DNA of 64,000 nucleotides from an uncultured Chloroflexia bacterium (GCA_963706695.1 CAVPNC010000013.1:16348-80347), one strand, 5' to 3'; positions 30,218-45,708 are shown, counted from the stretch's first letter. Program-made: numbers and translations. The notes: a model not told the origin generated them from the letters alone.

Positions 30218-30358
30218 ACGCGGACCCCGTGGCGGGCGGCGATCGCACCCTCACAGCCGAGGGCGGTACGGGACGAGGCGACCATGGCGGCATCATGGGC
30301 CAGCGGTCAAGAGTGCGCACGTGCTACGCGCCCCTTCGCGTCTGCCTGCCGGCCGCGC

Positions 30359-30419
30359 TTGACAAGGTGCAGTCGCGCGCTCTAGCATCAACAACGCCTT
30401 ATATAAAGGCTAGTTGTTG
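30359..30419 (+). promoter_or_regulatory. candidate sigma-70-type promoter (TTGACA-18-TAGCAT) with an abutting nested inverted repeat, a putative ArsR-family operator
   Basis: TTGACA at 30359-64 and TAGCAT at 30383-88. The palindrome is CAACAAC-GCCTT-atata-AAGGC-ta-GTTGTTG (30389-30419), in the only AT-rich patch of the MFS/arsR divergent spacer. Confidence 0.45.
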
Positions 30420-30448
30420 TTTCGAGCCGAGCGCCTGGAGGAGGGAGC

Positions 30449-30781
30449 TTGCCCAGTCCGGCACGCGTCCGCTCGACCATCGCCGCGGTCACCGATCCGC
30501 CCCCGGATCTGAAGGACGTGGCGCTGGTCCACAAGGCCCTTGCCGACCCCACCCGGCTGCGCATCCTCCAGCGCCTCGCGGAAGGGGACGGCACCGTCAC
30601 CGACCTCATGCGCCACGTCGACCTGAGCCAGCCGCTCGTGTCGTGGCATCTGCGCCGACTGCGCACTGCCGGTCTCGTCGAGACCCGTCGCCAGGGTCGA
30701 GAAACCATCTGCAGCCTCGGTCGCGAGGCCCTGCTGCAGTTCCACGCACAGGAGCTCGCGCTCCTGGGGATCGAGGGGTAG
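30449..30781 (+). CDS. ArsR/SmtB-family transcriptional regulator
   Basis: Winged HTH LADPTRLRILQRLAEGDGTVTDLMRHVDLSQPLVSWHLRRLRTAGLV. No ELCVCDL-type metal site. TTG start with a GGAGGAGGGA SD. Confidence 0.88.
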   Translation: MPSPARVRSTIAAVTDPPPDLKDVALVHKALADPTRLRILQRLAEGDGTVTDLMRHVDLSQPLVSWHLRRLRTAGLVETRRQGRETICSLGREALLQFHAQELALLGIEG

Positions 30782-30783
30782 TC

Positions 30784-31449
30784 GTGGGCAAGGGATCGTT
30801 CATCTCACCGGAGCAGCGCTCCGGCATCCGCGCCAAGGTCGAGCCCATCGCCTTGGCCATGTCTCGAGCAGGGCTCACGCCCAATATGCTCACGCTCATC
30901 GGCTTCGGCATCGCCTCGCTGGGTGGCGTGCTGGCCGCTGTCGAATGGTGGTTGCTCGCCGGCATCGTGGCCACGGCCGGTGCGGGCTTCGACATGTTCG
31001 ATGGGGCGGTCGCGCGCGCCACTGGGCAGGTAAGCAAGCTCGGCGCCTTCATGGACAGCACCTTCGACCGTTGGGGAGAGGGGATCGTCTATCTGGGCAT
31101 CGTCATCGGCTCCACGCGAGCAGGCTTCGATCTCGGAGCCTGGCTGGCGTCCGCAGCGCTGGTCTCGGCCTTCATGGTCAGCTACACCCGCGCCAAGAGC
31201 GAGTCGCTCGGCTTCTCCAGTGGTACCGGCATGGCCGCGATCGGATTCGCTCCGCGCGAGGTCCGCACGGTCATCCTCGGCATCGCTGTCGTCGTCGCCG
31301 GCATCTTCGGCGTCACGCCGGAGCTGTCGGACCCCGGCAGCCTCAGCCTCGCGATCGGCCTCGGCCTCATCGCCCTGCTGGCCACCATCACGGTGATCCA
31401 GCGCATCCGCTTCGTGACCTCGCAACCACCCAACCCGGGCAACGACTGA
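30784..31449 (+). CDS. pgsA1: CDP-alcohol phosphatidyltransferase, phosphatidylinositol-phosphate synthase-like (PgsA1-like)
   Basis: Signature D-x2-DG-x2-AR-x8-G-x3-D-x3-D, read as FDMFDGAVARATGQVSKLGAFMDSTFDRWGE. About 6 TM helices. The GTG at 30784 lies 3 nt after the arsR stop. Neighbours are ino1, acyltransferases and pimA. Confidence 0.8.
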   Translation: MGKGSFISPEQRSGIRAKVEPIALAMSRAGLTPNMLTLIGFGIASLGGVLAAVEWWLLAGIVATAGAGFDMFDGAVARATGQVSKLGAFMDSTFDRWGEGIVYLGIVIGSTRAGFDLGAWLASAALVSAFMVSYTRAKSESLGFSSGTGMAAIGFAPREVRTVILGIAVVVAGIFGVTPELSDPGSLSLAIGLGLIALLATITVIQRIRFVTSQPPNPGND

Positions 31450-31476
31450 TACCGGACAAGGCAGGAGACATCCCCC

Positions 31477-32646
31477 ATGAGCAACCAGGTTCGCGTCGCC
31501 ATCGTCGGCGTCGGCAACTGCGCCAGCAGCCTCATCCAGGGCCGCTACTACTACGAGAACGCCAATGAGGACGAGTTCGTCCCCGGCCTGATGCACGTCA
31601 AGCTCGGCGACTACCACGTGCGCGACATCGAGTTCGTGGCCGCCTTCGACGTCAACGCCAACAAGGTGGGCAAGGACCTGGGCGAAGCCATCTACGCCAA
31701 GCCCAACAACACCATCAGGTTCATGGACGTGCCACAGGTCGGCGTGACCGTGCAGCGCGGCCCCACGATGGATGGCATCGGCCGGTACGTCGCCGCCGTG
31801 GTGCCCGAGTCCCCCGCTGAGCCAGTCGATGTCGTGGCCGCCCTCAAGGCCGCTGACGTGGACGTGCTCGTCTCCTACCTGCCCGTGGGCAGCGAGGACG
31901 CCACCCGCTGGTACGCCGAGCAGGCCATCGAGGCCGGCGTCGCGTTCGTCAACGCCATTCCCGTCTTCATCGGCCGCGAGCCCGAGTGGCAGGCCAAGTT
32001 CGCCGCGGCCGGGCTGCCCATCATCGGCGACGACATCAAGAGCCAGGTGGGCGCCACCATCACCCATCGCGTGCTGACCCGCCTCTTCGACGATCGAGGC
32101 GTACAGGTCGACCGGACCTACCAGCTGAACTTCGGCGGCAACACGGACTTCCAGAACATGCTCGAGCGTGATCGTCTCGAGTCCAAGAAGATCAGCAAGA
32201 CCAACGCGGTCACCTCGCAGCTCGACTACGAGCTCGAGGAGGGTGCCGTGCACGTCGGGCCCTCGGACCACGTGCCGTGGCTGGAGGACCGGAAGTTCTG
32301 CCACATCCGCATCGAGGGCACGACCTACGGTGACGTGCCCCTCCTGGCCGAGCTCAAGCTCGAGGTCTGGGACAGCCCCAACAGCGCCGGTGTCATCACC
32401 GATGCCATCCGCTGCGCCAAGATCGGGCTTGACCGAGGTCTGGCGGGCACGCTCGTGGCTCCCTCGGCATACTTCATGAAGAGCCCGCCCGAGCAGCTGC
32501 ACGATGACGTCGCCCGCAAGCGCGTCGAGGCCTTCATCAGTGGCGAGGACAACGCGACCCTGACCGGCGCTGAGCCGGACGCGGTCGAAGAGGCCGAGGC
32601 GGTCCTGGCGGCCGCGTCGGAGCAGGAGGCGGTCACGATCGCCTGA
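31477..32646 (+). CDS. ino1: myo-inositol-1-phosphate synthase
   Basis: [19 protein letters not shown]-binding N-terminus, [28 protein letters not shown]. 389-aa short bacterial/archaeal type. Confidence 0.92.
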
Positions 32647-32656
32647 CAGGAGGGAC

Positions 32657-33670
32657 GTGTCCGGCGTCGACTACGCACCCCACCGCCGCACTGACCGGGG
32701 ACGGCTCCTGCGAGCCGTTTCGCGGGCCTGGGAGCGGATGGTGGTCACCGTCTTCCGCGCCGCGTCCTTCGTGCTGGTGCGCGTGCCGCTGCGCATCAGC
32801 GAGCCGATCGCGAAGATCGGTTTCATGGCCGGCTACTACCTCTGGCCGGCCAAGCGCGACATCGTCAAGCGCAACGCTGCCCACGTGCTGGGCCTGCCCG
32901 TCTCACACAAGGACGTGGCCGGCCTGGCACGCGGCGTCTTCGGCACCTACGCCCGCTTCGCCATCGAAGTCATGCGCATGCCTGGTCTGCCGGCCGACGA
33001 ACCGGTGCGCCTGATGCGCCGGGAAGGTGAGCAGCACGACCGCTTCCTGGCCCTGTGCCGCCAGTGCCAAGCGGATGGCCGCGGCATCATCGCGGTCTCC
33101 GGCCACATCGGCAGCATCGAGGTCTTTGCCGGGGCCTATGCGCGAGAGGGGCTGCCGACCTACGGCCTGGCCGACGACTCGGCCTTTCCAGAGCTCTTCG
33201 AGCTGCTCAACCGCAGCCGTGCACGCTGGGGCGTGACCATCATCCCCTGGAAGCGGCTGCGCGAGATCTTCAGGGTCATGCGCACGCCAGCCATCCTGGG
33301 CATGGTCGTGGACTGGGGCTACCGCGCGGATGACCTGCCCGTGCAGCTCTTCGGCTCGTGGACCACCCTGCCGGCCGGACCGGCCACGCTCGCAGCGCGG
33401 ACCGGCGCGGTGGTGCTGCCGGTCGTGGCACGCCGCCTCGACGACGGGGGCTACAGGCCCATCATGTTCGACCCGATCGAGGTCGCCGACTCCTCCCCTG
33501 CCACCCTTGCCGCAGCCACGCAGTCGATCGCCCACGCGCTCGAGGCCATGATCGCCGAGGCGCCCGAGCAGTGGTATACCTTCAAGCCCATGTGGCCCGC
33601 GAGCCAGGCCGAGCAGGCCGAGCTCGCGCGTCGCGCCGCCGCCACCGAGGGGGATGGTGCCCATGTCTGA
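32657..33670 (+). CDS. HtrB/LpxL-type lipid acyltransferase (PatA-like) 1
   Basis: N-terminal TM, catalytic H-x4-E (SGHIGSIEV) and downstream GPATLAARTGAVVLP. AGGAGGGA SD. Confidence 0.8.
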   Translation: MSGVDYAPHRRTDRGRLLRAVSRAWERMVVTVFRAASFVLVRVPLRISEPIAKIGFMAGYYLWPAKRDIVKRNAAHVLGLPVSHKDVAGLARGVFGTYARFAIEVMRMPGLPADEPVRLMRREGEQHDRFLALCRQCQADGRGIIAVSGHIGSIEVFAGAYAREGLPTYGLADDSAFPELFELLNRSRARWGVTIIPWKRLREIFRVMRTPAILGMVVDWGYRADDLPVQLFGSWTTLPAGPATLAARTGAVVLPVVARRLDDGGYRPIMFDPIEVADSSPATLAAATQSIAHALEAMIAEAPEQWYTFKPMWPASQAEQAELARRAAATEGDGAHV

Positions 33671-34643
33671 GACCGAGCGAACGCCGCCAGGGACCCCGCT
33701 GGGCGCCGCGGGGAGGGTCGTCTTCGCGACGCTGATGTTCGGACTGTGGCTGGCGCGCCGGCTGCCCGATCGTCCGCTCTACCGCGCCGCGTACGCCATC
33801 GGCGCCGGCCTCTACGTGCTCTTGCCTGGGCGACGAGCCCTCGTGCGCTCCAACCTCAAGCGTGTCGTGGACTGGCTGGTCGAACACGATCAAGCCAGCC
33901 CGAGGGTGCGTCGCGCCGCGGCCGACCCGCGCTCGCTCGACAGGCTGGTTCGAGAGTGCTTCGGCCACTGGGTCGTGACCTACGTGGAAGCGGCCCTGGC
34001 GCCGCGCTACAGCGCAGCCGAGCTCGAGCGCCGCTTCGCGCGAGCCGACCCTGAGGCCTCGGCGGAAGCGCTGACCGTGCCGCCACCGGGTCAGCCCGGA
34101 CCCATCCACATGGCCATGCACTTCGGCTCGGTCGATCTCTCCGCGCTCTATGGGGCACGCGTCGGCCGGCTACCGCTGACCGGGCCCATGGAGTTCCTGG
34201 AGACGCCCCTTGCTCGAGCCTACTTCGAGCGTGTGCGCACCGACCTCGACGTAACCATCGTGCCGCTCGGGAACGCCGCCAGCGCGCTCACCGAGGCGCT
34301 CGTGCGCGGGGAGGCCGTGGGCATCGTGGCCGACCGCAACATCGTCGGCCGCGGCACGCTGGTGGAGCTCTTCGGCGCTCCCATGCGGCTGCCCATCGGG
34401 CCGGCCATGCTCTCGCTACAGACGGGCGCACCGCTCTACCTGGAGGCCATCGAACGGCGCGAGCCGGGCTGCTGGCTGGGGCACACGATCCCCCTGCGCC
34501 CGGAGCCCGGTGCGCCTCGGCGGGAAGCCATGCGCCAGCTCATCGAGCAGGAGGTCCGGGCCATGGAGCGCGTCATCGCACGCGCTCCGGAGCAATGGAC
34601 CACACTGTTCTTTCCGATCTGGGAAGACGAGAGGGAAGTGTGA
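33654..34643 (+). CDS. HtrB/LpxL-type lipid acyltransferase (PatA-like) 2
   Basis: Paralogue of the preceding gene: H-x4-D (AMHFGSVDL) and GPAMLSLQTGAPLYL. Overlaps the upstream gene; ATG at 33654 or 33663. Confidence 0.8.
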   Translation: MVPMSETERTPPGTPLGAAGRVVFATLMFGLWLARRLPDRPLYRAAYAIGAGLYVLLPGRRALVRSNLKRVVDWLVEHDQASPRVRRAAADPRSLDRLVRECFGHWVVTYVEAALAPRYSAAELERRFARADPEASAEALTVPPPGQPGPIHMAMHFGSVDLSALYGARVGRLPLTGPMEFLETPLARAYFERVRTDLDVTIVPLGNAASALTEALVRGEAVGIVADRNIVGRGTLVELFGAPMRLPIGPAMLSLQTGAPLYLEAIERREPGCWLGHTIPLRPEPGAPRREAMRQLIEQEVRAMERVIARAPEQWTTLFFPIWEDEREV

Positions 34644-35515
34644 CCGACGAGGCTCCCGAGCAGCTCCCGGCCGACGCGGCAGGACAGCTCCTGCGGATCG
34701 ATCCGCACGTGCACACCCTGGCCTCCGATGGCATCCACGATGTGGAGACGGTGATCCACGCGGCCATGGCCGTGGGCCTGGACGCGGTCGCCATCGCCGA
34801 CCACGAACGCATGGACGCCGCCGTCGCCGGTCGAGCCATGGCCCAGCACCGTGGCTGGCCCATCGAGGTCATCGTGGCCGAAGAGATCTCGACCCGTGGC
34901 GGCCACCTCCTCGGTCTCTACCTGAAGCAGCGCATCCGGCCCTGGTACTCGCTCAAGGACTCGATCGCGCGGATCCACGAGCAGGGTGGCCTGGCCATCA
35001 TCGCCCACCCCCTGCCGCCCTACCCGCTCTGTGCGAGCGAGCGCACCATCCGCAAGCTCATGGACGAGGCCGACCCCATCTACCACCCCGACGGCATGGA
35101 GGGCTTCAACCCCACGACCGCCGGGCCTGCCCTGCGCCGCTGGAGCCGTCGTGCGCCGGCCTTGGCGGAGGAGCTGGGCATCGCCGCCACGGGCGGGTCG
35201 GACGCGCACAAGGCGGAGAACGTGGGCACGACCCACACGCTCGTGCGGCGGCGAGGCACGCTCGAAGCGAGCCTGCGCCAGGCCCTCGAGGAACGGGACA
35301 CGCGCTGGCAGGGCGAGGGCTACAGCTGGCGCGGGCAGGTGGGCATGTTCAGCCAGCAGACTCGCAAGAACCTCGCCGCCCTCGCGGCCGAGATCAACGG
35401 CAAGGTGCGCCGCAATGGCACCGGACGAGACCTCGGCTATCCTGGCGGACGCCAGCGACCGGTGGCCTTCGACCGCGAGGCCGCAGGGTTGCCGCCTGAC
35501 GGTCACCGGCGATGA
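34640..35515 (+). CDS. PHP-domain metal-dependent phosphoesterase
   Basis: PHP motifs RIDPHVHTLASDG, AIADHE, IIAHP, GGSDAH. The GTG at 34640 overlaps the upstream stop (GTGTGA), and the stop overlaps the pimA ATG (ATGA). Confidence 0.82.
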   Translation: MTDEAPEQLPADAAGQLLRIDPHVHTLASDGIHDVETVIHAAMAVGLDAVAIADHERMDAAVAGRAMAQHRGWPIEVIVAEEISTRGGHLLGLYLKQRIRPWYSLKDSIARIHEQGGLAIIAHPLPPYPLCASERTIRKLMDEADPIYHPDGMEGFNPTTAGPALRRWSRRAPALAEELGIAATGGSDAHKAENVGTTHTLVRRRGTLEASLRQALEERDTRWQGEGYSWRGQVGMFSQQTRKNLAALAAEINGKVRRNGTGRDLGYPGGRQRPVAFDREAAGLPPDGHRR

Positions 35516-36771
35516 AGATCGGCCTCGTCACGCCCTACATCTACCCGCTCCCGGGCGGCGTCAACGCCCACGTGGGCTACCTCTACGAGAACCTCGTCAA
35601 GCGCGGTCATGACGTGCGCATCATCAGCGCCACGCACGGGCCCCAGCGCTCGAGCGAGGGCGACATCATCCGCCTCGGCTACGGCTGGTCCGTGCCCACC
35701 AACGGCTCCGTGGGCACGCTCACCGTCTCACATCGCTACCCGCATCTGGTGCAGGAGATGCTCGAGCGTGAGCGCTTCGATGTGATCCACTTCCACGAGC
35801 CGTTCGTGCCCTTCCTCTCGCTGGTGATCCTGCGCTACTCCAAGGCGGTCAACATCGCCACCTTCCACGCCTACTCCGGCTTCAGCCCCTCGTACGAGTT
35901 CGGCAGACGCTTCATGAGCACACCCGCACGCCGGCTCCATGGCCGTATCGCGGTCAGCGCCGCGGCCATGCACTTCATCAAGCGCTACTTCCCGGGCGAC
36001 TACAAGGTCATCCCCAACGGCGTGGACATCTCGCAGTTCGACGACGTGCCGCCGTTCGCACGCTGGAACGACGGCGTGCCCAACATCCTCTTCGTCGGTC
36101 GCTTCGAGCAGCGCAAGGGGCTGATGTATCTGCTGCGCGCGTACTACCAGCTGCGCCTCGAAGGGCTCGGCTGCCGCTTGCTGGTGGTGGGTAACGGTCC
36201 CCAAGCGGCGGAGGCGCGCCGCTACATCCAGTCACGCCGCCTCGGAGGCGTGGAGATGCTGGGGCGCCTCTCGGACCACGACAAGGCCCGGGCCTTCGCC
36301 ACCGCCGACATCTACGCCGGGCCCGCCACGGGGCAGGAGTCCTTCGGGATCGTCCTGCTCGAAGCCATGGCTTCCGGCACGCCCATCGTGTGCAGCGACA
36401 TCCACGGCTACAAGGGAGTCGTCCGGCGCAACGAGCAGGCCGTGCTGGTGCCGCCACGTGACGTGGAGGCGCTGGCGGCAGCACTGGGGACCCTGCTGCG
36501 CGATCCGCTCCTGCGCCAGCGCATGGGCGAGTCCGGTCGCGAGCGCGTGGTGCAGTACGGCTGGGAGAACATCACGGCCAAGGTCGAGGACTACTACGGC
36601 TTCGTCATCCGACGCCTGGAGGCGAGAGGTGGCCTGCCCGCGGGCTTCGACGCGGAGATCCCGCCAGCTCCCAGTCGGGCGCCGGGCCTGTGGAGCCAGG
36701 CGGATGGCCTCGAGGACGAGGCGGGCGAGGAGTCACTGGCCACGATCGAGGCTTCTGAAGCCGGGGTCTAG
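35512..36771 (+). CDS. pimA: GT4 glycosyltransferase, phosphatidylinositol alpha-mannosyltransferase-like
   Basis: N-terminus MKIGLVTPYIYPLPGGVNAHV (compare the PimA N-terminus) and E-x7-E ESFGIVLLEAMASGTPIV. Synteny with the PIP synthase and acyltransferases. Confidence 0.82.
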   Translation: MKIGLVTPYIYPLPGGVNAHVGYLYENLVKRGHDVRIISATHGPQRSSEGDIIRLGYGWSVPTNGSVGTLTVSHRYPHLVQEMLERERFDVIHFHEPFVPFLSLVILRYSKAVNIATFHAYSGFSPSYEFGRRFMSTPARRLHGRIAVSAAAMHFIKRYFPGDYKVIPNGVDISQFDDVPPFARWNDGVPNILFVGRFEQRKGLMYLLRAYYQLRLEGLGCRLLVVGNGPQAAEARRYIQSRRLGGVEMLGRLSDHDKARAFATADIYAGPATGQESFGIVLLEAMASGTPIVCSDIHGYKGVVRRNEQAVLVPPRDVEALAAALGTLLRDPLLRQRMGESGRERVVQYGWENITAKVEDYYGFVIRRLEARGGLPAGFDAEIPPAPSRAPGLWSQADGLEDEAGEESLATIEASEAGV

Positions 36772-39700
36772 CCTCGCGGATCGGGGGTGTGCCCGGCGTC
36801 AGCGCCCCAGCGCCGGGCGGCGACGGCCACCGCCAGCACGAACAGCACCGTGACCCCGCCGAGCACGAGCATGGCCGGCTCGAAGATGCCGTCGTCGCTG
36901 GCCGGGTCGGTGTTGACCGAGAACTGGAAGTCCCAGTTCCAGGTCGGCAGCAGCCCCTGATAGAGGTGGGCCAGGTCCGCTGGCAGCGGCAGGCCGGCGA
37001 TGTTGGGGTACCACAGCAGCAGCCAGATCCCCGCCGCAGCGAGGATGCCCACCACCAGGCGCCGTGGATCACGGGCCCGCAGCACGGCGGCTGCCGGCAG
37101 GGCCAGCACGATCAGGCCCAGCAGGGCCAGCACGTCCGAGCTCAAGGTCACCCCCGCCGTGGAGGCGGTGTCGAGCGCAAGCAGCGCCCCGACCACGCCC
37201 GTGAGCGTGGCCAGGGCCACGGCCACGAGCGCCACCACCCACCGGCCCTGCCTGCCGGGATCCGCACGGGAGGCACGCCAGCCGATGAGCCCGGCCATGG
37301 CCGCTCCGGCGCCGACCACGAAGAGGGCCGCGACACCACCTTCGCTGAGCTGGGCGGTGCGCGTGACCTGACTGGCGCAGGCCACCCCGTCGGGATGGGC
37401 CACGGCCGTCCCGGAGATGATGCACAGGGGGGTGCGCAGCAACCACAGCAAGGGGATGGCGACGATGGCCGATGCCGCCGAGGCCCGCGCCAGGAACCAG
37501 ACCCGCCACGACGGCCCGTGCCAGAGCTCGCCCAGGAAGTAGGCCAGGGCCAGGAGCATGAAGGGCAGGCTGGCATAGACGTGATACTGGAAAGCGGCAC
37601 GGTCCACGCGAGCCCAGGGCAACCACATCGCCGCCCACATCAGCACCACCATGGTGAGCGCCAGGCTGCGCCGTCGCCACGCCGCCCAGGCGCTGAAGCC
37701 GATGCCGGCGATACCCAGCCAGAAGATGACGAGGTTGCCGGTGTCGTAGATGAGCCCGGTGGTGCCGTCGCTGTAGCGTCCCTGGAAGAACCACACCGGC
37801 TTGAGGTCGAGCGGCCAGGCCCACCAGGGTGAAGAGGCCGCGTGCTCGGCGCGCAGGTTGTCGTGATACTGGTACATGGACTCCGTGAGGGCCGCGATCG
37901 TGCGGCCGCCCTCGGTGCCCTCTGCCAGGAAGGGCAGGCTGCCCAGCAGGGGCACGCCCCAGTCGTTGCCCAGCTCGACCCAGGGCGAATAGGTCACCAG
38001 GTAGACGATCACGGGCAGCACCGTGAGGGCGGCCATGGTCAGCAGCCAGGGCAGCACGTGCACCGGTCCGGGCCGCAACCACGCGCTCGTGCCGGGGGCC
38101 GGACCGCGCGCGCCGACAGCCCACGGTCCATGGCCGGCCATGGCCGCGATCAGGGCCACGACCGCGACGGCCACGCCGATCACCATGGAGAGGCCGCCGA
38201 GGACAGCTAGCTGCAGCAGCCACAGGGCCACGCCGGCGGCCAGGGGCAGGGCCACGGCCAGGATCACCTCCACCTTGGTCCAGGGGATGGGTCGACGGAT
38301 GATCCCGGCCGTCAGCAGGCCGGTGAGCACGAGCATGAGCACGAGGAAGACCCAGTTGCGTACGACCTCCGACCCGGCCTCGGGTCGGATGGCCATCGTG
38401 CCCAGGACGGCGGTCATGCCCACCATCACCAGCAACGCCAGGGCACGACCCAGGGCTGAGCGCAGGAGCACCAGCAGGCCCAGCCCCCCGATGGCGTAGA
38501 GCGCGACCCACTTCGAGGCCAGAGCGAGCCCCAGGGCCACGCCCGCCCCGGCCACCAGCCCGGCCGCGGTCCAGGGTCGACGCGGTGCCAGGTAGAGCGG
38601 CGCCAGCAGCAGCACCGCCAGCAGCACGAAGGCGGTGACGTAGACGTCGTTCATGGCGATGCGGGCGTTGGCGAAGAGCATGCCCTCGCCAAGCACCAGT
38701 CCCGCTGTGATGAGCCCGATGCTTCGCCTGGCGAAGAGCACTCGGGCAAGCAGGTATGCGAGCGCGGCCGTGAGCGCCCCCAGCAGGACGCCTGGCACTC
38801 GCCAGCCGAAGGCGTTGCCGCCGATATCGATGCCGGCCACGCGTCCATCGCCGGCGATCGCCAGCAGCTCGCTGCGGTCGGCGTCAGGCCGCTCGGAGAG
38901 CGAATCCGCGAGCAGGATCCGGGGCTGGTGCGGGAGGGGCACATCGATGAAGACGGAGCGGCCCTTGGGCTCGACCACGTAGACGGTGGGGCCGCCGCTC
39001 GGGGCCACCCCGAGGGCGTGCATCAGCTCGGCGGATCCGTTCCAGACGAGGCCTTCCACCGCGCCGGGCATCCAGACCGACTCGGGCAGGGCCAGGCCGT
39101 CGTCGCTGACCGAGATGGTCTCGAGCGCGGGGCCTGCGGCCACGTAGAGCGTGGGCTCGTCGCTGTCGGGCTCGGCCAGCGCGAGCGCCCGCGCCGGCTC
39201 GTCCGTGGGGATGGTGTCGAGCGGATCCAGGCTCCACACATCGAGGATGTCGACGCCTGCCGCGTCGGCCACCGCCAGTAGCGGCGCCGACTCCAGCTCT
39301 GCGCCGGGCAGCCGACCGTCTTCGATGAACGCCGACAGGCCCTCGACGGTGTCGGCGTCAGGCCAGGCCAGGATGGTCACGAAGCCGTCGCGCGCGAGCA
39401 GCTCGGTGAGTCGACCGGGGTCGTCGTCGAGCACGCTCGCGAGCAGGTCCGCGGTCGCCTTGCGGTCGGGCAGCGCTCTGGTGTCGACGATGAGCCGTTC
39501 GGCCCAGGGCAGCTCGACCACGTCCTCGACGCCCACGGCCAGTCGCTCCGAGAGCAGCTCACCGGTGTCGGTGTCGAAGCTGGCGATGGATCCCAGGGTG
39601 ACCGCCACGAGGGCCGTGTCAGTGACCAGCAGTCGCTGCACCGGTGCGCCTGGCCCGAACGAGAACGGGATGGCGGCATCGACGATGGCGGCAGGGTCGG

Positions 39701-41870
39701 CGTCCGCGCCGAACCGCTGCGCATCGAACCACGTGGTATCGAAGCGGTAGAGGCGACCGGCAGGATCGGCCGCGTAGAGGAGGTGATCGTCGCCGTCCAC
39801 GGCCACGGCAGAAGCAGCCAGGGGCAGCTCCTCGAGCAGCTCGCGTGTGGCCAGGTCGTAGACGCCCAGGCGGTCGCCAGCGGCCACGTAGAGGCGATCG
39901 CCGTTGCGGCGACCTTCGTCGTCGTCAGGGGCCCAGCGCGCCTCGATGGCGGCGTCCTCGGCGTTCATGCCCAGATCGGCCGTACCGGTGACCTCGTTGC
40001 CACCGGCAAGGCGGATGCCCCAGGCCATGGCGTACTTGGCCAGGTGTGGATGGGTGAACTCGTAGATATCGTGCGGCTGGCCGTACTCCCACTGCTGCAG
40101 GAACTCGGCGGCGGTGCGCGCGTGGTAGACCTCGTCGAAGTACATGCGCGTCGGCTGGTCCAGCCGGAAGCCACGCAGCGTCAGCGTCAGCACCACCAGC
40201 ACCACCAGCACCAGCAGGTCCAGCCGGTCGATACGCCCACCGGGCTCGAAGCGCAGGAGCTCGCTGCGATCTCGGCGCAGCGAGCCCCATGAGAGACGGG
40301 CCACGAGATGGTCGAGCAGGCTGAGCTGCGCCGGTGTCGGCGGTGCCGGGGCGGGAGCCGCAGGATAGGCCGACGGCGGGACCGGGGCGGTGGCCCCCGC
40401 GGGGCCGGGCGGGACCGGGGCAGGAGCCTGAACCGGGCGTCCTGCGGCGTCCGGTGCGGCGCGAGCATGGAAGGCATCGGGGCTGGTGCGCAGTCCGGGA
40501 CGCAGCTGCAGGGCCACCCACAGGCCCACACCCGTCTGCAGCAGGGCTGAGAGCGTGATCAGCGGCTGCGTCCGGAACCACTCACCGAGGGGCAGGGTCT
40601 CGACGTTGGCGGTGCCGTAGAGCGGGAGCGTGAGGATGGCGTGGAGGTTGATGAAGGCCCCCACGCTCAGCAACAGCAGCGCCACCGCCCAGCGGCCGCT
40701 GACGACGGCCAGGAGGGGCATCAGGGCCACGGCCGGGAAGATGTAGCGCTCGTGGACGCGCGTGGGCAGGATGAAGAAGGCGATGGCCAGGAAGGTCACC
40801 GCCACGATGAGCGTCCAGCGGTCGTCGCGAACCGCGCCGCGGAACACGCCCCAGGCGAAGCCGACCGCCAGCAGCGCGGCCCCGATGGCCACTCCCGGGA
40901 TGGGGCCCAGGAGACCAACGGTGTCGTCGCTCCAGCGCAGGGCGGCGGCCAGCGAGGGCTCGCCACCAGCGCCCACCAGGGCCCAGCCGTTGAAGGCGTT
41001 GACGCTGAGGTAGCCGTAGCCGCCGGCCGTGCCGAACATGCGCTCGAGGTACTCGAGCGGCCCCATGCCGAAGGGCAGGGCGATGACGAAGAACGCGGCC
41101 CAGGCCGCAACCAGCGCCGTCAGCAGGCGGATCGGCCCCTGATGCGTGGAAAGCCAGGCCGCCAGTCGTCGCGGCGCCCAGGGCTCGTGCCGCGGGCCCG
41201 ACCCCGATCGCAGGAGGTGGCGCTTGATGAGCACCGCCGCCACGATGGGGATGAGCACGACCCCGAACTGGGGCTTGACCAGCGCGGCCGTGGCGGCGAA
41301 GGCGGCCGCGCCCTCGCTGTTGCCACGGATGAGGGCAGCCAGGCCCAGCAGGATCACCAGCGCGCCGGCGGCATCGGTCTGGCCCCACAGGGCCGAGTCG
41401 TAGAAGGAGACGGGGTTGAAGACGTAGAGCGCGGCTGCCGCCAGGGCCAGCGCTTCGCTGCGGGAGCCCGGCCAGGTCCAGCCCCGGACGAGACGGTAGA
41501 GCACGTAGCCGACGGCGACATCGAGCAGGATGGGTGGAAGCTTGATCAGCTCGGTGGCGCTGACCGCTGCGCCCGAGAGCGTGCCCACCAGCCACAGCGC
41601 GTAGAGGTAGGCCGGCGGATAGTCGGCGAAGCCGGCGTTGGCGTAGAAGCCGGCCGGCCCGTGCTCCGCCATCGAGCCGGCCCACGAGGCGTACGACGAG
41701 AGGTCCGACTCGAAGCCAGAACCGGGGAACAGCACATAGGCGATGACCAGCCGCAGCGCCAGGCCTGCGAGCAGCAGGACCACGATGGCGGGGCTCAGGG
41801 CGAGCGCGGACAGGGGGCGGACCGGCTCTCCGGGGCTACGGCCGACCCCACCCACCGGGGTAGAAGTCAC
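36768..41870 (-). CDS. 1700-aa polytopic membrane protein with two GT-C-type glycosyltransferase modules (N-terminal DUF2029/PIG-V-like; C-terminal PMT/GT39-like with a large repeat-rich insert)
   Basis: N-module: FESDLSSYASWAG...FADYPPAYLYALW plus about 10 TM helices. A Pro-rich linker follows. C-module: MYFDEVYHARTA..THPHLAKY, an insert of about 430 aa, then GNAFGWRVPG and a PMT C-terminal signature HAASSPWWAWPLDLKPVWF. Confidence 0.75.
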   Translation of the reverse strand: MTSTPVGGVGRSPGEPVRPLSALALSPAIVVLLLAGLALRLVIAYVLFPGSGFESDLSSYASWAGSMAEHGPAGFYANAGFADYPPAYLYALWLVGTLSGAAVSATELIKLPPILLDVAVGYVLYRLVRGWTWPGSRSEALALAAAALYVFNPVSFYDSALWGQTDAAGALVILLGLAALIRGNSEGAAAFAATAALVKPQFGVVLIPIVAAVLIKRHLLRSGSGPRHEPWAPRRLAAWLSTHQGPIRLLTALVAAWAAFFVIALPFGMGPLEYLERMFGTAGGYGYLSVNAFNGWALVGAGGEPSLAAALRWSDDTVGLLGPIPGVAIGAALLAVGFAWGVFRGAVRDDRWTLIVAVTFLAIAFFILPTRVHERYIFPAVALMPLLAVVSGRWAVALLLLSVGAFINLHAILTLPLYGTANVETLPLGEWFRTQPLITLSALLQTGVGLWVALQLRPGLRTSPDAFHARAAPDAAGRPVQAPAPVPPGPAGATAPVPPSAYPAAPAPAPPTPAQLSLLDHLVARLSWGSLRRDRSELLRFEPGGRIDRLDLLVLVVLVVLTLTLRGFRLDQPTRMYFDEVYHARTAAEFLQQWEYGQPHDIYEFTHPHLAKYAMAWGIRLAGGNEVTGTADLGMNAEDAAIEARWAPDDDEGRRNGDRLYVAAGDRLGVYDLATRELLEELPLAASAVAVDGDDHLLYAADPAGRLYRFDTTWFDAQRFGADADPAAIVDAAIPFSFGPGAPVQRLLVTDTALVAVTLGSIASFDTDTGELLSERLAVGVEDVVELPWAERLIVDTRALPDRKATADLLASVLDDDPGRLTELLARDGFVTILAWPDADTVEGLSAFIEDGRLPGAELESAPLLAVADAAGVDILDVWSLDPLDTIPTDEPARALALAEPDSDEPTLYVAAGPALETISVSDDGLALPESVWMPGAVEGLVWNGSAELMHALGVAPSGGPTVYVVEPKGRSVFIDVPLPHQPRILLADSLSERPDADRSELLAIAGDGRVAGIDIGGNAFGWRVPGVLLGALTAALAYLLARVLFARRSIGLITAGLVLGEGMLFANARIAMNDVYVTAFVLLAVLLLAPLYLAPRRPWTAAGLVAGAGVALGLALASKWVALYAIGGLGLLVLLRSALGRALALLVMVGMTAVLGTMAIRPEAGSEVVRNWVFLVLMLVLTGLLTAGIIRRPIPWTKVEVILAVALPLAAGVALWLLQLAVLGGLSMVIGVAVAVVALIAAMAGHGPWAVGARGPAPGTSAWLRPGPVHVLPWLLTMAALTVLPVIVYLVTYSPWVELGNDWGVPLLGSLPFLAEGTEGGRTIAALTESMYQYHDNLRAEHAASSPWWAWPLDLKPVWFFQGRYSDGTTGLIYDTGNLVIFWLGIAGIGFSAWAAWRRRSLALTMVVLMWAAMWLPWARVDRAAFQYHVYASLPFMLLALAYFLGELWHGPSWRVWFLARASAASAIVAIPLLWLLRTPLCIISGTAVAHPDGVACASQVTRTAQLSEGGVAALFVVGAGAAMAGLIGWRASRADPGRQGRWVVALVAVALATLTGVVGALLALDTASTAGVTLSSDVLALLGLIVLALPAAAVLRARDPRRLVVGILAAAGIWLLLWYPNIAGLPLPADLAHLYQGLLPTWNWDFQFSVNTDPASDDGIFEPAMLVLGGVTVLFVLAVAVAARRWGADAGHTPDPRG

Positions 41871-41973: not shown

Positions 41974-43347
41974 ATGCTCACCGACGCCGCGCCTGAAGCA
42001 CCGCCCCTCGAGACCGGTCCCGGTGCTCGGCTGGAGTCGCTCTTGTGGCGGGTCGACCCGGTGTGGGTCTCGGTGGCACTCTTCGGTCTCGCGCTCGTCG
42101 TCTATCTCGGCTCCAACCCGGTCCGCAACGACTTCTACGACCACTTCGTGTGGCAGGCCGACGCCTTCCTCCAGGGCCGCGCGGAGATCGAGTACCCGGT
42201 CGTCGAGGGCCCCTTCCAGAACGGCCACTTCCAGGATGTGCTGCCGGTGGCCCCCGACCGCGCCCAGATCCCGTTCCCGCCCCTGCCAGCGGTGGTGCTC
42301 ATGCCCTTCGTGGCCGTGTGGGGCCTGGGCACCAATGGCGCGGCGGTGGCGGCCGTGCTCGGGGCGCTCAACGTGGTCCTCTGCTGGGTCATGCTCCTGG
42401 GCGTGACGCCGCGCCGGTCGGCGGCGCTGCTGGGCACGCTCTTCTACGCCTTCGGCACGGTGGCCTGGTACGCGGCCATGCTGGGCACGACCTGGTTCCT
42501 GGCGCATGTGGTGGCCTCGACCTTCCTCTTCATCGCCATCGCCACAGCCGTACGCGCCGACACCGCCGCGATGCGCGCCCAGGCCGTCGGTGGTGGACAT
42601 GCGGCCGGCCGTCAGCTGGCGGCCGGCCTTGCCTTCGGGGCGGCCGTGACCGCGCGCCTGACCACCATCGTGGCCGCGCCCTTCTTCGTCTTCGTCGGTG
42701 GTGGACGTGGCTGGTTCGGGCGCGCCCTTGCGGCCGGGGTCGGCGCGCTCATGCCCGTGCTGCTGCTGCTGGGCTACAACCTCGTCACGACCGGCGAGCT
42801 CTTCCATCCGGCCTACGACTACCTCTACGAGGTCGAGTACCGCCCCAGACCAGAGCTGGTGAACCCGGATTGGGCAGCGGAGGACCCCCGCTACATCCCC
42901 CAGAACATCGGCATCATGCTGGGCGCGCTGCCGGTCTCACCCTTGCTTGACGATCCCGCCTGCGCTCTCCAGCCGTTGACGCTGGGCTCGCTCTTCGACC
43001 GCGCTTGTCCGATCCTGCAGCCGGACCCGCTGGGCATGAGCCTCCTGCTGACGAGCCCGGCCTACCTCCTGGCCCTGCCGGTCCTGCTCTCCGACTGGCG
43101 GCGACGACTGGTGGCCGGGGCGGCGCTGGCGGTGCTGGCCGTGGCCCTCGCGGACCTCATGCACTTCAGCCAGGGCTGGGTCCAGTTCGGCTATCGCTTC
43201 AGCAACGACTTCGCGCCCTTCGCGACGGTGCTGGTGGCGCTCGGCATCGCCCGCCTGCGTTCGGGCTGGCTCCCGATCGCGCTCGTGGTCGCCTCCATCG
43301 TGGTCAACGCCTGGGGTGTCACCTGGGGCGTCACGCTGGGGTGGTAG
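41974..43347 (+). CDS. GT-C-fold membrane glycosyltransferase (ArnT/PMT-like, family uncertain)
   Basis: 457 aa, about 11 TM helices. The first periplasmic loop carries acidic/aromatic residues (NDFYDHFVWQADAFLQG). Divergent from the giant GT-C gene. Confidence 0.6.
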   Translation: MLTDAAPEAPPLETGPGARLESLLWRVDPVWVSVALFGLALVVYLGSNPVRNDFYDHFVWQADAFLQGRAEIEYPVVEGPFQNGHFQDVLPVAPDRAQIPFPPLPAVVLMPFVAVWGLGTNGAAVAAVLGALNVVLCWVMLLGVTPRRSAALLGTLFYAFGTVAWYAAMLGTTWFLAHVVASTFLFIAIATAVRADTAAMRAQAVGGGHAAGRQLAAGLAFGAAVTARLTTIVAAPFFVFVGGGRGWFGRALAAGVGALMPVLLLLGYNLVTTGELFHPAYDYLYEVEYRPRPELVNPDWAAEDPRYIPQNIGIMLGALPVSPLLDDPACALQPLTLGSLFDRACPILQPDPLGMSLLLTSPAYLLALPVLLSDWRRRLVAGAALAVLAVALADLMHFSQGWVQFGYRFSNDFAPFATVLVALGIARLRSGWLPIALVVASIVVNAWGVTWGVTLGW

Positions 43348-44882
43348 CCACCGAGGCTCCGGGCGCACGCGCGTCCGACTACGCACTCGCGGCCCTGCCG
43401 GTGATGATGGGTGCCCTCGCGCTCTACATGTCGACCCTGTTGCCCGACGTGGGCGTGTGGGACACGGCCGAGTTCCAGGCCTTGGGTCCGGTGCTGGGCA
43501 CCGCGCACCCCACCGGCTACCCCACCTACACCCTGCTCCTGTGGCTGGCCTCGGTGGTGCTGCAGCCCCTGGGCAACGAGGCCTACCGGGCTGACCTGCT
43601 CTCGGCCCTGCTCATGGCCGGTGCGTCCGCCCTGCTGGCGGTGCGCGTCGTCATGGCCACGAGGCGCTGGGCCCTGGGCCTCGCCACGGGCGCGATCTTC
43701 GCCCTCACACCGGTGGCCTGGACGTGGGGGCTACGGGCCGATCCGCACGCCCTCCACGTCTTCGTGGCCGCGTTGCTGCTGGTCCTGCTCGGTGTGTGGC
43801 AGGCACGGGAGGGCCGCGCCCCGGGCGACGGCGCTCGCTGGCTGCTGGCGGCGGCCGTGGTCTATGGACTGGCCCTGGGCAACCACGCCCTGACCCTGCT
43901 GCTGGCGCCCGGCATCGCGGTCTACGTCCTGCTGGTGTCGCCGCGCATCCTGCGGCGTCAGTGGCGGCTCGTGCTCGCCTGCGCGGCCGCGCTGCTGCTG
44001 GCGGCGGCATCGGTCTACCTCTACCTGCCCCTGCGCTCGGCCATGGACCCGGCACTCGACTACGCCGACCCCCAGACCTGGGAGCGCTTCTGGTACGTGG
44101 TCCTGGGCGAGCAGTTCCAGGGCTCCTACGGACCGCTACCGGCGCTGGCGGAGCTGCTCGGCGGTGTCTGGGACGAGCTCGTGCGTAACGTCGGCCTGCT
44201 GGCCAGCCTGGCGCTGGCCGGAGCCCTGCTGGGCCTGTTGCGCCACCCGCGCCTGACGGTGTTGGCGCTGCTCTGGTTCGGGGGCACCTGGCTCTTCGCC
44301 GTGGGCTACCCCAACGCCGCCATCGAGCGCTACTACCTGGTGCCCCTCCTGACCGCTGCGCTGGCGGTGGGGCTGGCGGCCGACGCGGTCTGGGACGCCC
44401 TGCGCGACCTGCTGGCGCGAAGCGGTCACGCGCTCGGCTACCGCCTGGCCACGAGCGCCCTCGTGCTGCTGCTGCTGGGCCTGGCCGTCGCGCCCGCCCT
44501 CGAGCGCCGTGAGGCCATCGACGCGAGCGGCGACAGCTGGGGCCGGCAGATCCTCGAGTCCACCTTCGAGGTGGTCGAGCCGAAAGCCGTGATCATCTCG
44601 TGGTGGTCGTACTCGACACCGCTGTGGTACGGCCAGCACGTGGAGGGGCGCCGTCCTGACGTGACCGTCATCGATGACCGCGACATCCTCGATGACGGAT
44701 ACGGCGATGTGACCGCTGCCATCGAGGCCCACCTCGGTGAGCGCCCGGTCTATGTCATCCGCCTCGACCGTGACCTGCAGGCCCTGCGCGAGTCCTACAG
44801 GCTGGAGCCAGTGATGGGCGTGCCCTTGGAGATGTACAGGGTGGAGGCGGGGCGCACGGACGCCGGAGGTCCGGCCGACTAG
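43341..44882 (+). CDS. DUF2723/TMEM260-like GT-C glycosyltransferase
   Basis: DVGVWDTAEFQALGPVLGTAHPTGYPTYTLLLW matches the DUF2723 signature (D..E......G.aHPpGYP). Multi-TM N-half and soluble C-half. The GTG at 43341 overlaps the upstream stop; the 5' part of the track ORF (43005..) is a shadow frame. Confidence 0.72.
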   Translation: MVATEAPGARASDYALAALPVMMGALALYMSTLLPDVGVWDTAEFQALGPVLGTAHPTGYPTYTLLLWLASVVLQPLGNEAYRADLLSALLMAGASALLAVRVVMATRRWALGLATGAIFALTPVAWTWGLRADPHALHVFVAALLLVLLGVWQAREGRAPGDGARWLLAAAVVYGLALGNHALTLLLAPGIAVYVLLVSPRILRRQWRLVLACAAALLLAAASVYLYLPLRSAMDPALDYADPQTWERFWYVVLGEQFQGSYGPLPALAELLGGVWDELVRNVGLLASLALAGALLGLLRHPRLTVLALLWFGGTWLFAVGYPNAAIERYYLVPLLTAALAVGLAADAVWDALRDLLARSGHALGYRLATSALVLLLLGLAVAPALERREAIDASGDSWGRQILESTFEVVEPKAVIISWWSYSTPLWYGQHVEGRRPDVTVIDDRDILDDGYGDVTAAIEAHLGERPVYVIRLDRDLQALRESYRLEPVMGVPLEMYRVEAGRTDAGGPAD

Positions 44883-44891
44883 GATTGGAAC

Positions 44892-45708
44892 GTGGCCGAC
44901 CCCAACACCGCCCCCGACCCAGCGCCGAACGCGCACGTCGAGGCCCTGAGCTACTTCTTCCCCGCGCACGACGAGGCCGAGAACATCGAAGCCCTGGTGG
45001 AGGAGGCCCTGGTGGACCTCGGGCCCATCGCGGAGCGGTTCGAGATCATCGCCGTGGACGACGGCAGCACCGACGGCACCGACCGAGATCGCCGATCGGC
45101 TCGCCGCGCTGCACCCCGATGTCGTACGTGTCGTGCACCATCCCCGCAACCAGGGCTACGGGGCGGCCGTACGATCCGGCCTGGCCGCTGCTCGCTATCC
45201 GCTGGTCTGCTTCACCGACGGCGATCGCCAGTTCCGCGTCGCTGACCTGGCCCGGCTGACCGCACGTCTCGACGAGACGGACCGGGATGGACGCACCCCC
45301 GACGTCGTGGCCGGCTACCGCATCAAGCGCGCCGACCCTGCCGTCCGCCTGGCCTACGCCCGCACCTACCGGGCCATGCTGCGCCTCTTCTTCGGCCTGC
45401 GCGTGCGCGACCCCGACTGCGCCTGCAAGCTCTTTCGACGAGACGCGCTCGAAGGCGTGGCCGTCGAGTCTGGTGGCGCCTTCCTGTCGGCGGAGCTGCT
45501 CATCAAGATCGGCGCCCGCGGCCAGATCATCGTGGAGCAGGGCGTGCCCCACTACCCGCGCACAGCGGGGCGCGCGTCAGGCGCGGACCCGCGCGTGGTC
45601 TTGCGAGCGGTCCGCGACTTCTGGTCTCTGCGCCTGCGCCTGTGGGCCGACAAGGACAAGGCGCTCGAGCGCGGCGAGCCCGTCATCGGAGAGGCCGGCG
45701 AAGGCTAG
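44892..45708 (+). pseudogene. GT2 polyprenol-phosphate glycosyl(mannosyl)transferase (Ppm1/DPM1-like) interrupted by a +1 frameshift near 45081
   Basis: Frame 0 gives SYFFPAHDEAENI...IIAVDDGSTDGT and then nonsense. Frame +1, from 45082, gives TEIADRLAALHPDVVRVVHHPRNQGYGAAVRSGL...FTDGDRQF...CACKLFRR. A single extra base lies in ggcacc-g-accgag. Confidence 0.7.

Follow-up and report, generated by a model that had tools for sequence, protein, structure and literature searches.

What kind of protein does an uncultured bacterium make when one open reading frame (ORF) seems to join two different membrane glycosyltransferases, and could the two act together? The question arises from a 64,000-nucleotide stretch of DNA from an uncultured Chloroflexia bacterium (GCA_963706695.1 CAVPNC010000013.1:16348-80347), hereafter the window, in which the original prediction, made from the sequence alone, described a 1,700-residue protein of two unlike GT-C glycosyltransferase modules, the second split by a repeat-rich insert. 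We found that the ORF, at positions 36768 to 41870 on the minus strand, encodes a real and widely conserved 1,700-residue membrane protein of uncultured Chloroflexota (Limnocylindria). The joining of two different GT-C modules was upheld: the second is a protein O-mannosyltransferase (PMT) of family GT39 by Pfam, and the first is a GT-C enzyme by fold and by a match to PIG-U. The gene and its parts are as follows.

36768-41870, minus strand: whole coding sequence, with a GTG start at 41870 and the stop codon at 36768-36770 (ORF listing, translation, full-length homologs).
40506-41870, minus strand: module 1 (residues 1-455), predicted GT-C module of 12 transmembrane (TM) helices, N-in/C-in, with a PimE/ALG6-like fold (AlphaFold2, Foldseek, Pfam PIG-U, invariant residues).
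40251-40505, minus strand: linker (residues 456-540), Pro/Ala-rich and predicted to be disordered, ending in an Arg-rich stretch (RRDRSELLR) ahead of the following TM helix (predicted local distance difference test [pLDDT], composition, variability).
39993-40250, minus strand: first part of the PMT module (residues 541-626), with TM1, the start of external loop 1 (EL1), the catalytic-type pair D579-E580 (YFDEVYH) and the THPHLAK helix (Pfam PMT positions 2-61, Pmt1 alignment).
38826-39992, minus strand: predicted seven-bladed beta-propeller (residues 627-1015) inside EL1 (AlphaFold2 strands, Foldseek WD40 matches, profile matches).
39303-39485, minus strand: predicted alpha/beta sub-insert (residues ~796-856) between propeller blades (helices and a strand at sub-sequence 263-310 of the model).
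37434-38825, minus strand: PMT core (residues 1016-1479), with TM2 from R1024, further TM helices, the EL4 hairpin, R1424-x2-F1427 and PMT_4TMC (Pfam, alignment with Pmt1 6p25, model).
36771-37433, minus strand: C-terminal region (residues 1480-1700), with a loop containing Cys1483 and Cys1498, another five predicted TM helices and a conserved WYPN..GLPLP..YQGLLPTWNWDF segment (no family match).

Integrity and conservation of the gene

The ORF reads through 1,700 codons and a stop codon without internal stops, and the intact frame originally described is borne out by this translation. The GTG start is credible because the N terminus that it gives (VTSTPVGG..) aligns with homologs from residue 1; an AGGAGG motif lies 13 nt upstream of it. 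At its other end the gene converges with a GT4 glycosyltransferase gene on the plus strand (35512-36771), and the bases confirm that the two stop codons overlap in a shared CTAG at 36768-36771 (TAG at 36769-36771 for the GT4 gene and at 36768-36770 for the minus-strand ORF). The name pimA that had been given to this neighbor is plausible from its context, but hidden Markov models (HMMs) identify it only as a generic GT4 enzyme. The gene region is about 71% G+C and has a positive AT skew, as expected for a minus-strand membrane-protein gene. All of the motifs quoted in the original prediction were found, namely FESDLSSY (residues 51-60), FADYPP (81-86), YFDEVYH (577-583), THPHLAK (606-612) and FGWR (1021-1024).

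A search of 5.8 billion proteins for homologs returned 736 matches, of which we describe the best 120. These are 1,540 to 1,913 residues long and share 44 to 83% identity, and nearly all of them are complete, with a few cut short by contig ends; they originated from Chloroflexota or “Candidatus Limnocylindria” metagenome-assembled genomes (MAGs) of different sources, and their names are automatic ones only, such as “phospholipid carrier-dependent glycosyltransferase” and “Gpi18-like mannosyltransferase/...PMT.” A species-level scan with one genome per GTDB species gave at least 480 relatives. Our locus counts rest on the best 80 of these, all from Chloroflexota/Limnocylindria MAGs. A single uninterrupted ORF encoded both module 1 and the PMT core in 72 of the 80 loci; in 6 (L014, L044, L064, L066, L077, and L078) the two lay side by side but did not share a frame or ORF; the remaining 2 were on short contigs, with module 1 beyond the contig end or absent.

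The six split loci, together with a Pro-rich, GC-rich linker of the sequence type that is prone to errors, are what could be cited for the view that two separate genes have been joined into the long ORF by a misassembly or a spurious frameshift. We consider this view hardly credible, since 72 of 80 independently assembled loci have a single ORF and the 120 listed homologs, which are of varied origin, are nearly all complete. In addition, independent Logan contigs from run X1, a sediment metagenome with 93% of sampled words present, were identical to the linker across 40020-40633 and nowhere in the gene carried an indel that would break the frame, although such contigs cannot prove variants absent. 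Thus, comparison with relatives (fused in 72 loci, apart in 6) and read-derived contigs both agree with the fusion as predicted, with no stop or frameshift that would divide it, and in HMM searches no single known family explained its full length.

In the split loci the break falls in or near the Pro-rich linker (L044, L064, and L066; also L014, L077, and L078), and these may be either real gene splits or assembly frameshifts. A spike in depth at 39911-40257, present in all runs, was considered as a biological signal and rejected; it reflects cross-mapping onto the most conserved segment of the gene, from the DE motif to HPHLAK. Metatranscriptome contigs at 90 to 99% identity cover scattered parts of the gene, a weak indication that relatives may express it.

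Two GT-C modules and an inserted propeller

Module 2 had been described as PMT/GT39-like, and both diagnostic Pfam families pass their cutoffs. The PMT family (PF02366) scored 53.6 bits (cutoff, 22.7) in two stretches, the main one at residues 1018-1137, and PMT_4TMC (PF16192) scored 39.2 bits (cutoff, 32.4) at residues 1327-1479. The two stretches correspond to PMT profile positions 2-61 and 80-199 and lie about 390 residues apart in the protein. The family profile aligns YFDEVYH with VFDEVHF (D77-E78) of yeast Pmt1 (6p25) and R1024 with R138, the essential Arg with which TM2 of Pmt1 starts. Residues D579, E580, T606-H609, K612, and R1024 are invariant in 106 sequences.

AlphaFold2 models were made in separate pieces, one for module 1 and one for residues 541-1700. 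The latter has a mean pLDDT of 91.1 and a predicted template modeling score (pTM) of 0.90, with Pmt4 (9i5k_A) among its Foldseek matches. The model contains a C-terminal beta-hairpin of EL4 at residues ~1360-1375 (strands at sub-sequence 820-825 and 830-835), and the Rx2[YF] motif of EL5 is found as the invariant R1424-x2-F1427; hairpin and motif are tied to acceptor/donor binding in MtPMT and ScPmt1 (PMC12331936). Against a core of 11 TM helices in canonical PMTs, the model appears to have more than 11, plus 5 after PMT_4TMC. The last C-terminal segment aligns weakly (2.4 bits) with the C-terminal tail of Pmt1. Cys1483 and Cys1498 (37375-37424, minus strand), in a loop after PMT_4TMC that is predicted to be external, are invariant in 106/106 aligned homologs and probably form a disulfide.

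The insert had been put at ~430 residues and likened to a beta-propeller from its recurring strand-like units. A large insert is confirmed, the figure being slightly high: K612 and R1024 are 411 residues apart (403 to 453 in 105 homologs), and the folded insert comprises 389 residues, compared with only ~60 residues in the corresponding loop of yeast Pmt1 by profile alignment. The propeller is supported by the model, in which 28 strands over residues 627-1015 form seven four-stranded blades (pLDDT 91, pTM 0.90). Closure is of the velcro type, with the first two and last two strands forming one common blade; the ends of the insert thus meet, a geometry that suits a domain placed in a loop. Each of the top 35 PDB matches from Foldseek is a propeller of the WD40 type or a chain with WD repeats; for the compact matches with seven blades, the target template modeling scores (TM-scores) are 0.6 to 0.75 (5yzv_B, 0.75; Cdh1, 0.74). 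The family profile weakly matches YVTN, Tako8, and YncE propellers; among the Pfam propeller families (WD40, PQQ_2), none reached threshold, with PQQ_2 at 13.4 bits (cutoff, 27.6). The sub-insert between blades (residues ~796-856) shows weak sequence similarity to class B penicillin-binding proteins in the region of their N-terminal pedestal (SpoVD 7rcz residues 29-104, E value of 7e-4; 4ovd, E value of 8e-3).

The apparent extra TM helices and the C-terminal region, which are unlike canonical PMTs, raise the possibility that the PMT-like module modifies a glycolipid or wall polymer rather than proteins, with the propeller binding that polymer or another envelope component. Propellers bind many types of ligands, and the gene neighborhood described below is rich in lipid-glycan genes. 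We nevertheless think a nonprotein acceptor unlikely, since the hallmark PMT features linked to the binding of peptide acceptors (the DE motif, the C-terminal hairpin of EL4, and Rx2F in EL5) are all present, and to our knowledge every characterized GT39 enzyme is a protein O-mannosyltransferase.

The original prediction called module 1 DUF2029/PIG-V-like and gave it about 10 TM helices. Its place among GT-C enzymes holds, the predicted number of helices is 12, and the family label is backed by no HMM; PimE/ALG6-like by fold is the better description. The AlphaFold2 model of module 1 (pLDDT 88.3, pTM 0.87) parses into 12 helices, and its best Foldseek match is ALG6 (6snh; E value of 1e-6, TM-scores of 0.59/0.63), followed by PIG-U chains (ranks 2 to 4), PimE (9dm7_A; E value of 2e-4, target TM-score of 0.63), ALG3, and glycosylphosphatidylinositol (GPI) mannosyltransferase I. 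The isolated module matches Pfam PIG-U (PF06728) at 30.5 bits (cutoff, 24.5) over profile positions 58-194 of 378 only, and the whole-protein Pfam scan did not report PIG-U. PimE has 12 TM helices, both termini in the cytoplasm, and its catalytic D58 on juxtamembrane helix 1, and it belongs with ALG6, ArnT, and PglB to subclass GT-C_A (PMC12041525). Because of that assignment we dropped an earlier classification of module 1 as GT-C_B, by which the protein would have been an “A+B fusion.”

Conserved residues of module 1 include D56, followed by Y60, on the first external helix, DYPP (83-86), YDSALWGQTD (157-166), KPQ (199-201), and LPTRVHERY (368-376). All 26 sequences in an alignment of stand-alone and fused proteins retain D56 together with Y60 four positions later, and at least 90% of 106 fused homologs retain D56; neither alignment shows any variation at Q164, K199, or H373 (part of LPTRVHERY). 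In chain position, D56/Y60/Q164/K199/H373 appear to mirror D58/Y62/Q163/K195/H322 of PimE, which are essential there and bind the donor phosphate or act as the catalytic base (PMC12041525). This conservation bears on a further explanation, that only one module is catalytic and the other acts as a scaffold or as a subunit that binds substrate. The precedent is PIG-U of the GPI transamidase, which has a GT-C fold but is not known to act as a transferase; it is also the only Pfam family above threshold for module 1, and its chains rank 2 to 4 in the fold search. An inactive module appears improbable to us in view of the partial profile coverage of that match and the retention, in both alignments, of residues at the donor-binding and catalytic positions of PimE.

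An exhaustive search with module 1 alone identified 3,912 representative proteins at E values up to 1e-3. Some of them are encoded by complete stand-alone genes (440 to 510 residues) that have no adjacent PMT and are named by automatic labels only. Among distant relatives, P0169 (2,390 residues) has ~900 extra residues between its N-terminal module and its PMT part, and P0173 and P0249 fuse the N-terminal module to non-PMT C-terminal regions. Because it is joined to other or larger partners in this way, the module behaves as a mobile unit. As judged from these sequences, module 1 marks a large GT-C family (~3,900 representatives) outside the curated glycosyltransferase HMMs that we searched.

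A Pro-rich linker between the modules was predicted correctly, with 18 Pro, 18 Ala, and 9 Arg among 85 residues; the linker is variable among homologs, and pLDDT is <50 for residues 481-520. Arg-rich segments precede TM1 of each module (the N terminus, and RRDRSELLR before residue 549) and also occur in loops 221-245 and 348-351, at the start of the linker, and in the C-terminal tail. This distribution fits an in-out-in parse of the 12 helices of module 1, a linker that would be cytoplasmic, and an external EL1 with the propeller, and we infer the topology of the whole chain accordingly. The loop that contains the catalytic Asp of PMTs is lumenal or periplasmic (PMC12331936). On the question of which side the insert occupies, the propeller would thus be extracytoplasmic, because the loop that holds it also holds the catalytic Asp, and the Arg-rich flanks lie on the other side.

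Gene neighborhood and proposed function

Two gene groups border the 1,700-residue protein gene.

30229-36771, plus strand: convergent operon of a phosphatidylinositol-phosphate (PIP)-synthase-like CDP-alcohol transferase, inositol-3-phosphate synthase (Ino1), two phosphatidylinositol mannoside (PIM)-acyltransferase-like genes, a PHP gene, and the GT4 gene.
41974-45690, plus strand: divergent operon of a 457-residue membrane protein, a TMEM260-like GT-C, and a GT2 gene.

In the convergent operon, the CDP-alcohol transferase best matches archaetidylinositol- and phosphatidylinositol-phosphate synthases, the Ino1 match reaches 580 bits, and two genes best match phosphatidylinositol mannoside acyltransferase. 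The GT4 gene is kept in 71/80 loci, PHP in 69/80, the acyltransferases in 64 to 66/80, and Ino1 and the CDP-alcohol transferase in 57/80 each. On the divergent side, the 457-residue gene is kept in 62/80 loci and the TMEM260-like gene in 59/80, and GT2 is present in 62/80. The GT2 gene matches polyprenyl-phosphate-sugar synthases (PpgS, ArnC, and dolichyl-phosphate hexose transferase) as well as generic GT2 enzymes.

We think it probable, if far from settled, that the protein combines two active GT-C modules in one chain, with the PMT module starting O-mannosylation and the PimE-like module extending it on proteins, acting on phosphatidylinositol (PI) glycolipids, or both. We infer the donor sugar, the acceptors, and the coupling of the two modules as follows. 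The GT2 enzyme would charge polyprenyl phosphate with hexose on the cytoplasmic face, and the product would then be flipped. Both modules would use a polyprenyl-phosphate sugar, most likely polyprenyl-phosphate-mannose (PPM), at the outer face of the cytoplasmic membrane, where the PMT module would move the hexose to Ser/Thr of exported proteins. The propeller, lying in the catalytic loop, would most likely select or hold the acceptor protein, a role comparable to that of the MIR domain but in another loop and with another fold. The PimE-like module would then most likely add mannose to the O-mannose, to the PI-based glycolipids that the adjacent operon produces, or to both. In mycobacteria, PimE takes part in PIM synthesis and also lengthens the O-mannose chains of proteins (PMC12757957).

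Several observations weigh against this proposal. Module 1 reaches no curated glycosyltransferase family threshold in Pfam: Alg6_Alg8 (PF03155) scored 12.4 bits for module 1 and 17.6 to 19.9 bits for stand-alone relatives (cutoff, 25), the GT87/DUF2029 HMM matched neither module 1 at E values up to 10 nor the stand-alone relatives, and GT76/PIG-V (Gpi18) had no Pfam match to module 1. The link of homologs to Gpi18 is a JGI automatic label only (“Gpi18-like mannosyltransferase”). A sequence profile of the module 1 family (A3) found nothing meaningful among all PDB sequences, so the link to ALG6 and PimE is one of fold, and the correspondence with PimE residues is a match of position along the chain only. 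ALG6, the best fold match, transfers glucose. The NCBIfam equivalog for actinobacterial Pmt (PrMnsylTfPmt) scored 22.9 bits (cutoff, 800), and on sequence grounds module 2 is a divergent PMT/GT39 enzyme, not an ortholog of the actinobacterial one. Finally, the PIM-type operon is convergent with the 1,700-residue protein gene and is not cotranscribed with it.

An alternative hypothesis is that the modules serve unrelated acceptors, module 1 acting on PI-based glycolipids only and the PMT module on proteins only, and that fusion simply co-locates two consumers of one donor. The strongly conserved synteny with the PIP synthase/Ino1/acyltransferase/GT4 operon fits this hypothesis, as do the stand-alone module 1 genes with no PMT nearby and the fusions to non-PMT partners. 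We view it as possible but rather doubtful. The fusion is kept in 72/80 species over 38 to 80% identity, which suggests functional coupling rather than chance. The absence of the PI/PIM operon beside some fused relatives (e.g., L002, L012, and L019) argues against glycolipid-only action of module 1, as it also does against our own proposal. PimE itself serves both pathways, and the two readings therefore overlap.

Returning to coupled, active modules, we tentatively speculate, with less conviction than for the activities themselves, that the gene encodes a self-contained O-mannosylation machine of Limnocylindria, in which the propeller recognizes acceptors, the PMT module installs the first mannose, and the PimE-like module extends it and elaborates PIM-like glycolipids. 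If this is true, then envelope chemistry based on PIM and protein O-mannose, so far regarded as actinobacterial, would also occur in Chloroflexota, and the EL1 propeller would have arrived independently at the role that the MIR domain of eukaryotic PMTs plays in selecting acceptors. The choice of acceptors by the known bacterial PMTs, which are bare membrane enzymes, is an open question for which a propeller-bearing PMT could offer a natural study system. The fusion also suggests which enzyme might extend O-mannose, or which glycolipid pathway might use the same donor. The conserved neighborhood points to an envelope program of inositol glycolipids and O-mannosylation in an abundant uncultured class of freshwater, soil, and sediment, a prediction that could be tested by lipidomics and glycoproteomics. 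Our literature searches turned up neither a propeller-bearing PMT nor one joined to a second GT-C, and no account of PIM-type pathways in Limnocylindria; the layout thus seems to be undescribed, though each part is of a known kind and the sequences are public under generic names.

Other features of the neighboring genes deserve mention. The GT2 gene (44886-45690, plus strand) is split between two frames near 45081 (..DDGSTDGTD / EIADRLAALHP..), a pattern that would fit the loss of two bases from a Pro codon; it is intact in 62/80 related loci, and the break in the window could be either an assembly error or a pseudogene. The PHP metallohydrolase (34595-35515, plus strand), present in 69/80 loci between the PIM-acyltransferase-like genes and GT4, is a candidate phosphatidylinositol-phosphate phosphatase; we know of no bacterial enzyme assigned to that step. 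The PIP-synthase-like ORF (30229-31449, plus strand) is listed at 406 residues with its domain from residue ~197, the homolog in L001 has 234 residues, and the real start is probably ~170 codons downstream. The 457-residue membrane protein (41974-43347, plus strand) has no Pfam family and only a weak NCBIfam match to LA_3751/LA_3752 putative glycosyltransferases (24 bits; cutoff, 200). The idea that it is a paralog of module 1 was rejected after BLASTP gave no similarity. The TMEM260-like (PF11028) GT-C ORF (43005-44882, plus strand) overlaps the preceding gene by 343 nt as listed, and translation probably begins near 43344 instead. Three consecutive Proton_antipo_M genes (nuoL/M/N-like), at 22589-27725 on the plus strand, lie upstream of the inositol-lipid operon.

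Comparison with known systems

The closest counterparts of module 2 are the GT39 PMTs, such as yeast Pmt1, Pmt2, and Pmt4 and Mycobacterium tuberculosis Rv1002c (MtPMT). They share with it the PMT and PMT_4TMC domains, the catalytic Asp-Glu pair where EL1 begins, the Arg where TM2 begins, the C-terminal hairpin of EL4, and the Rx2[FY] motif of EL5, and PPM is the expected donor here too. Known bacterial PMTs have no soluble domain, and eukaryotic PMTs carry the MIR domain in EL4 (PMC12331936). The protein in the window differs in having a 389-residue seven-bladed propeller in EL1 in place of a beta-trefoil MIR domain in EL4, together with apparently extra TM helices, a 220-residue C-terminal region, and fusion to a second GT-C.

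Module 1 resembles PimE (GT87), the mycobacterial PPM-dependent alpha-1,2-mannosyltransferase, in fold (target TM-score of 0.63), in its predicted 12 TM helices and cytoplasmic termini, in placing an Asp on juxtamembrane helix 1 four residues ahead of an aromatic one, and in Gln, Lys, and His at similar chain positions. The gene also adjoins a PI/PIM-type operon, and PimE elongates protein O-mannose, as proposed here for module 1. The two differ in that identity is only ~15%, module 1 has no GT87/DUF2029 HMM match, and PimE is a separate protein rather than part of a fusion with a PMT. ALG6 and ALG8 (GT57), the dolichyl-phosphate-glucose transferases of the endoplasmic reticulum, share the best fold match, a weak Pfam similarity over the HERY region, and DYPP in the first loop; module 1, by contrast, is bacterial, stays below the Pfam threshold, and has 12 helices rather than the 14 TM helices of ALG6. 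PIG-U, the GPI transamidase subunit, is matched above the PF06728 threshold and at fold ranks 2 to 4, but the profile is covered only in part, and PIG-U is not known to be catalytic, whereas module 1 keeps catalytic-type residues.

TMTC1-4 and TMEM260, O-mannosyltransferases of the GT-C type whose soluble domains bind acceptors, follow the same principle of a GT-C core with an extracytoplasmic soluble repeat domain (TPR in TMTC). The human member of the TMEM260 family is a protein O-mannosyltransferase, and a TMEM260-like gene is a conserved neighbor of the gene studied here. Where those proteins bear the soluble domain as a C-terminal appendage, the Limnocylindria protein is predicted to hold its propeller inside EL1.

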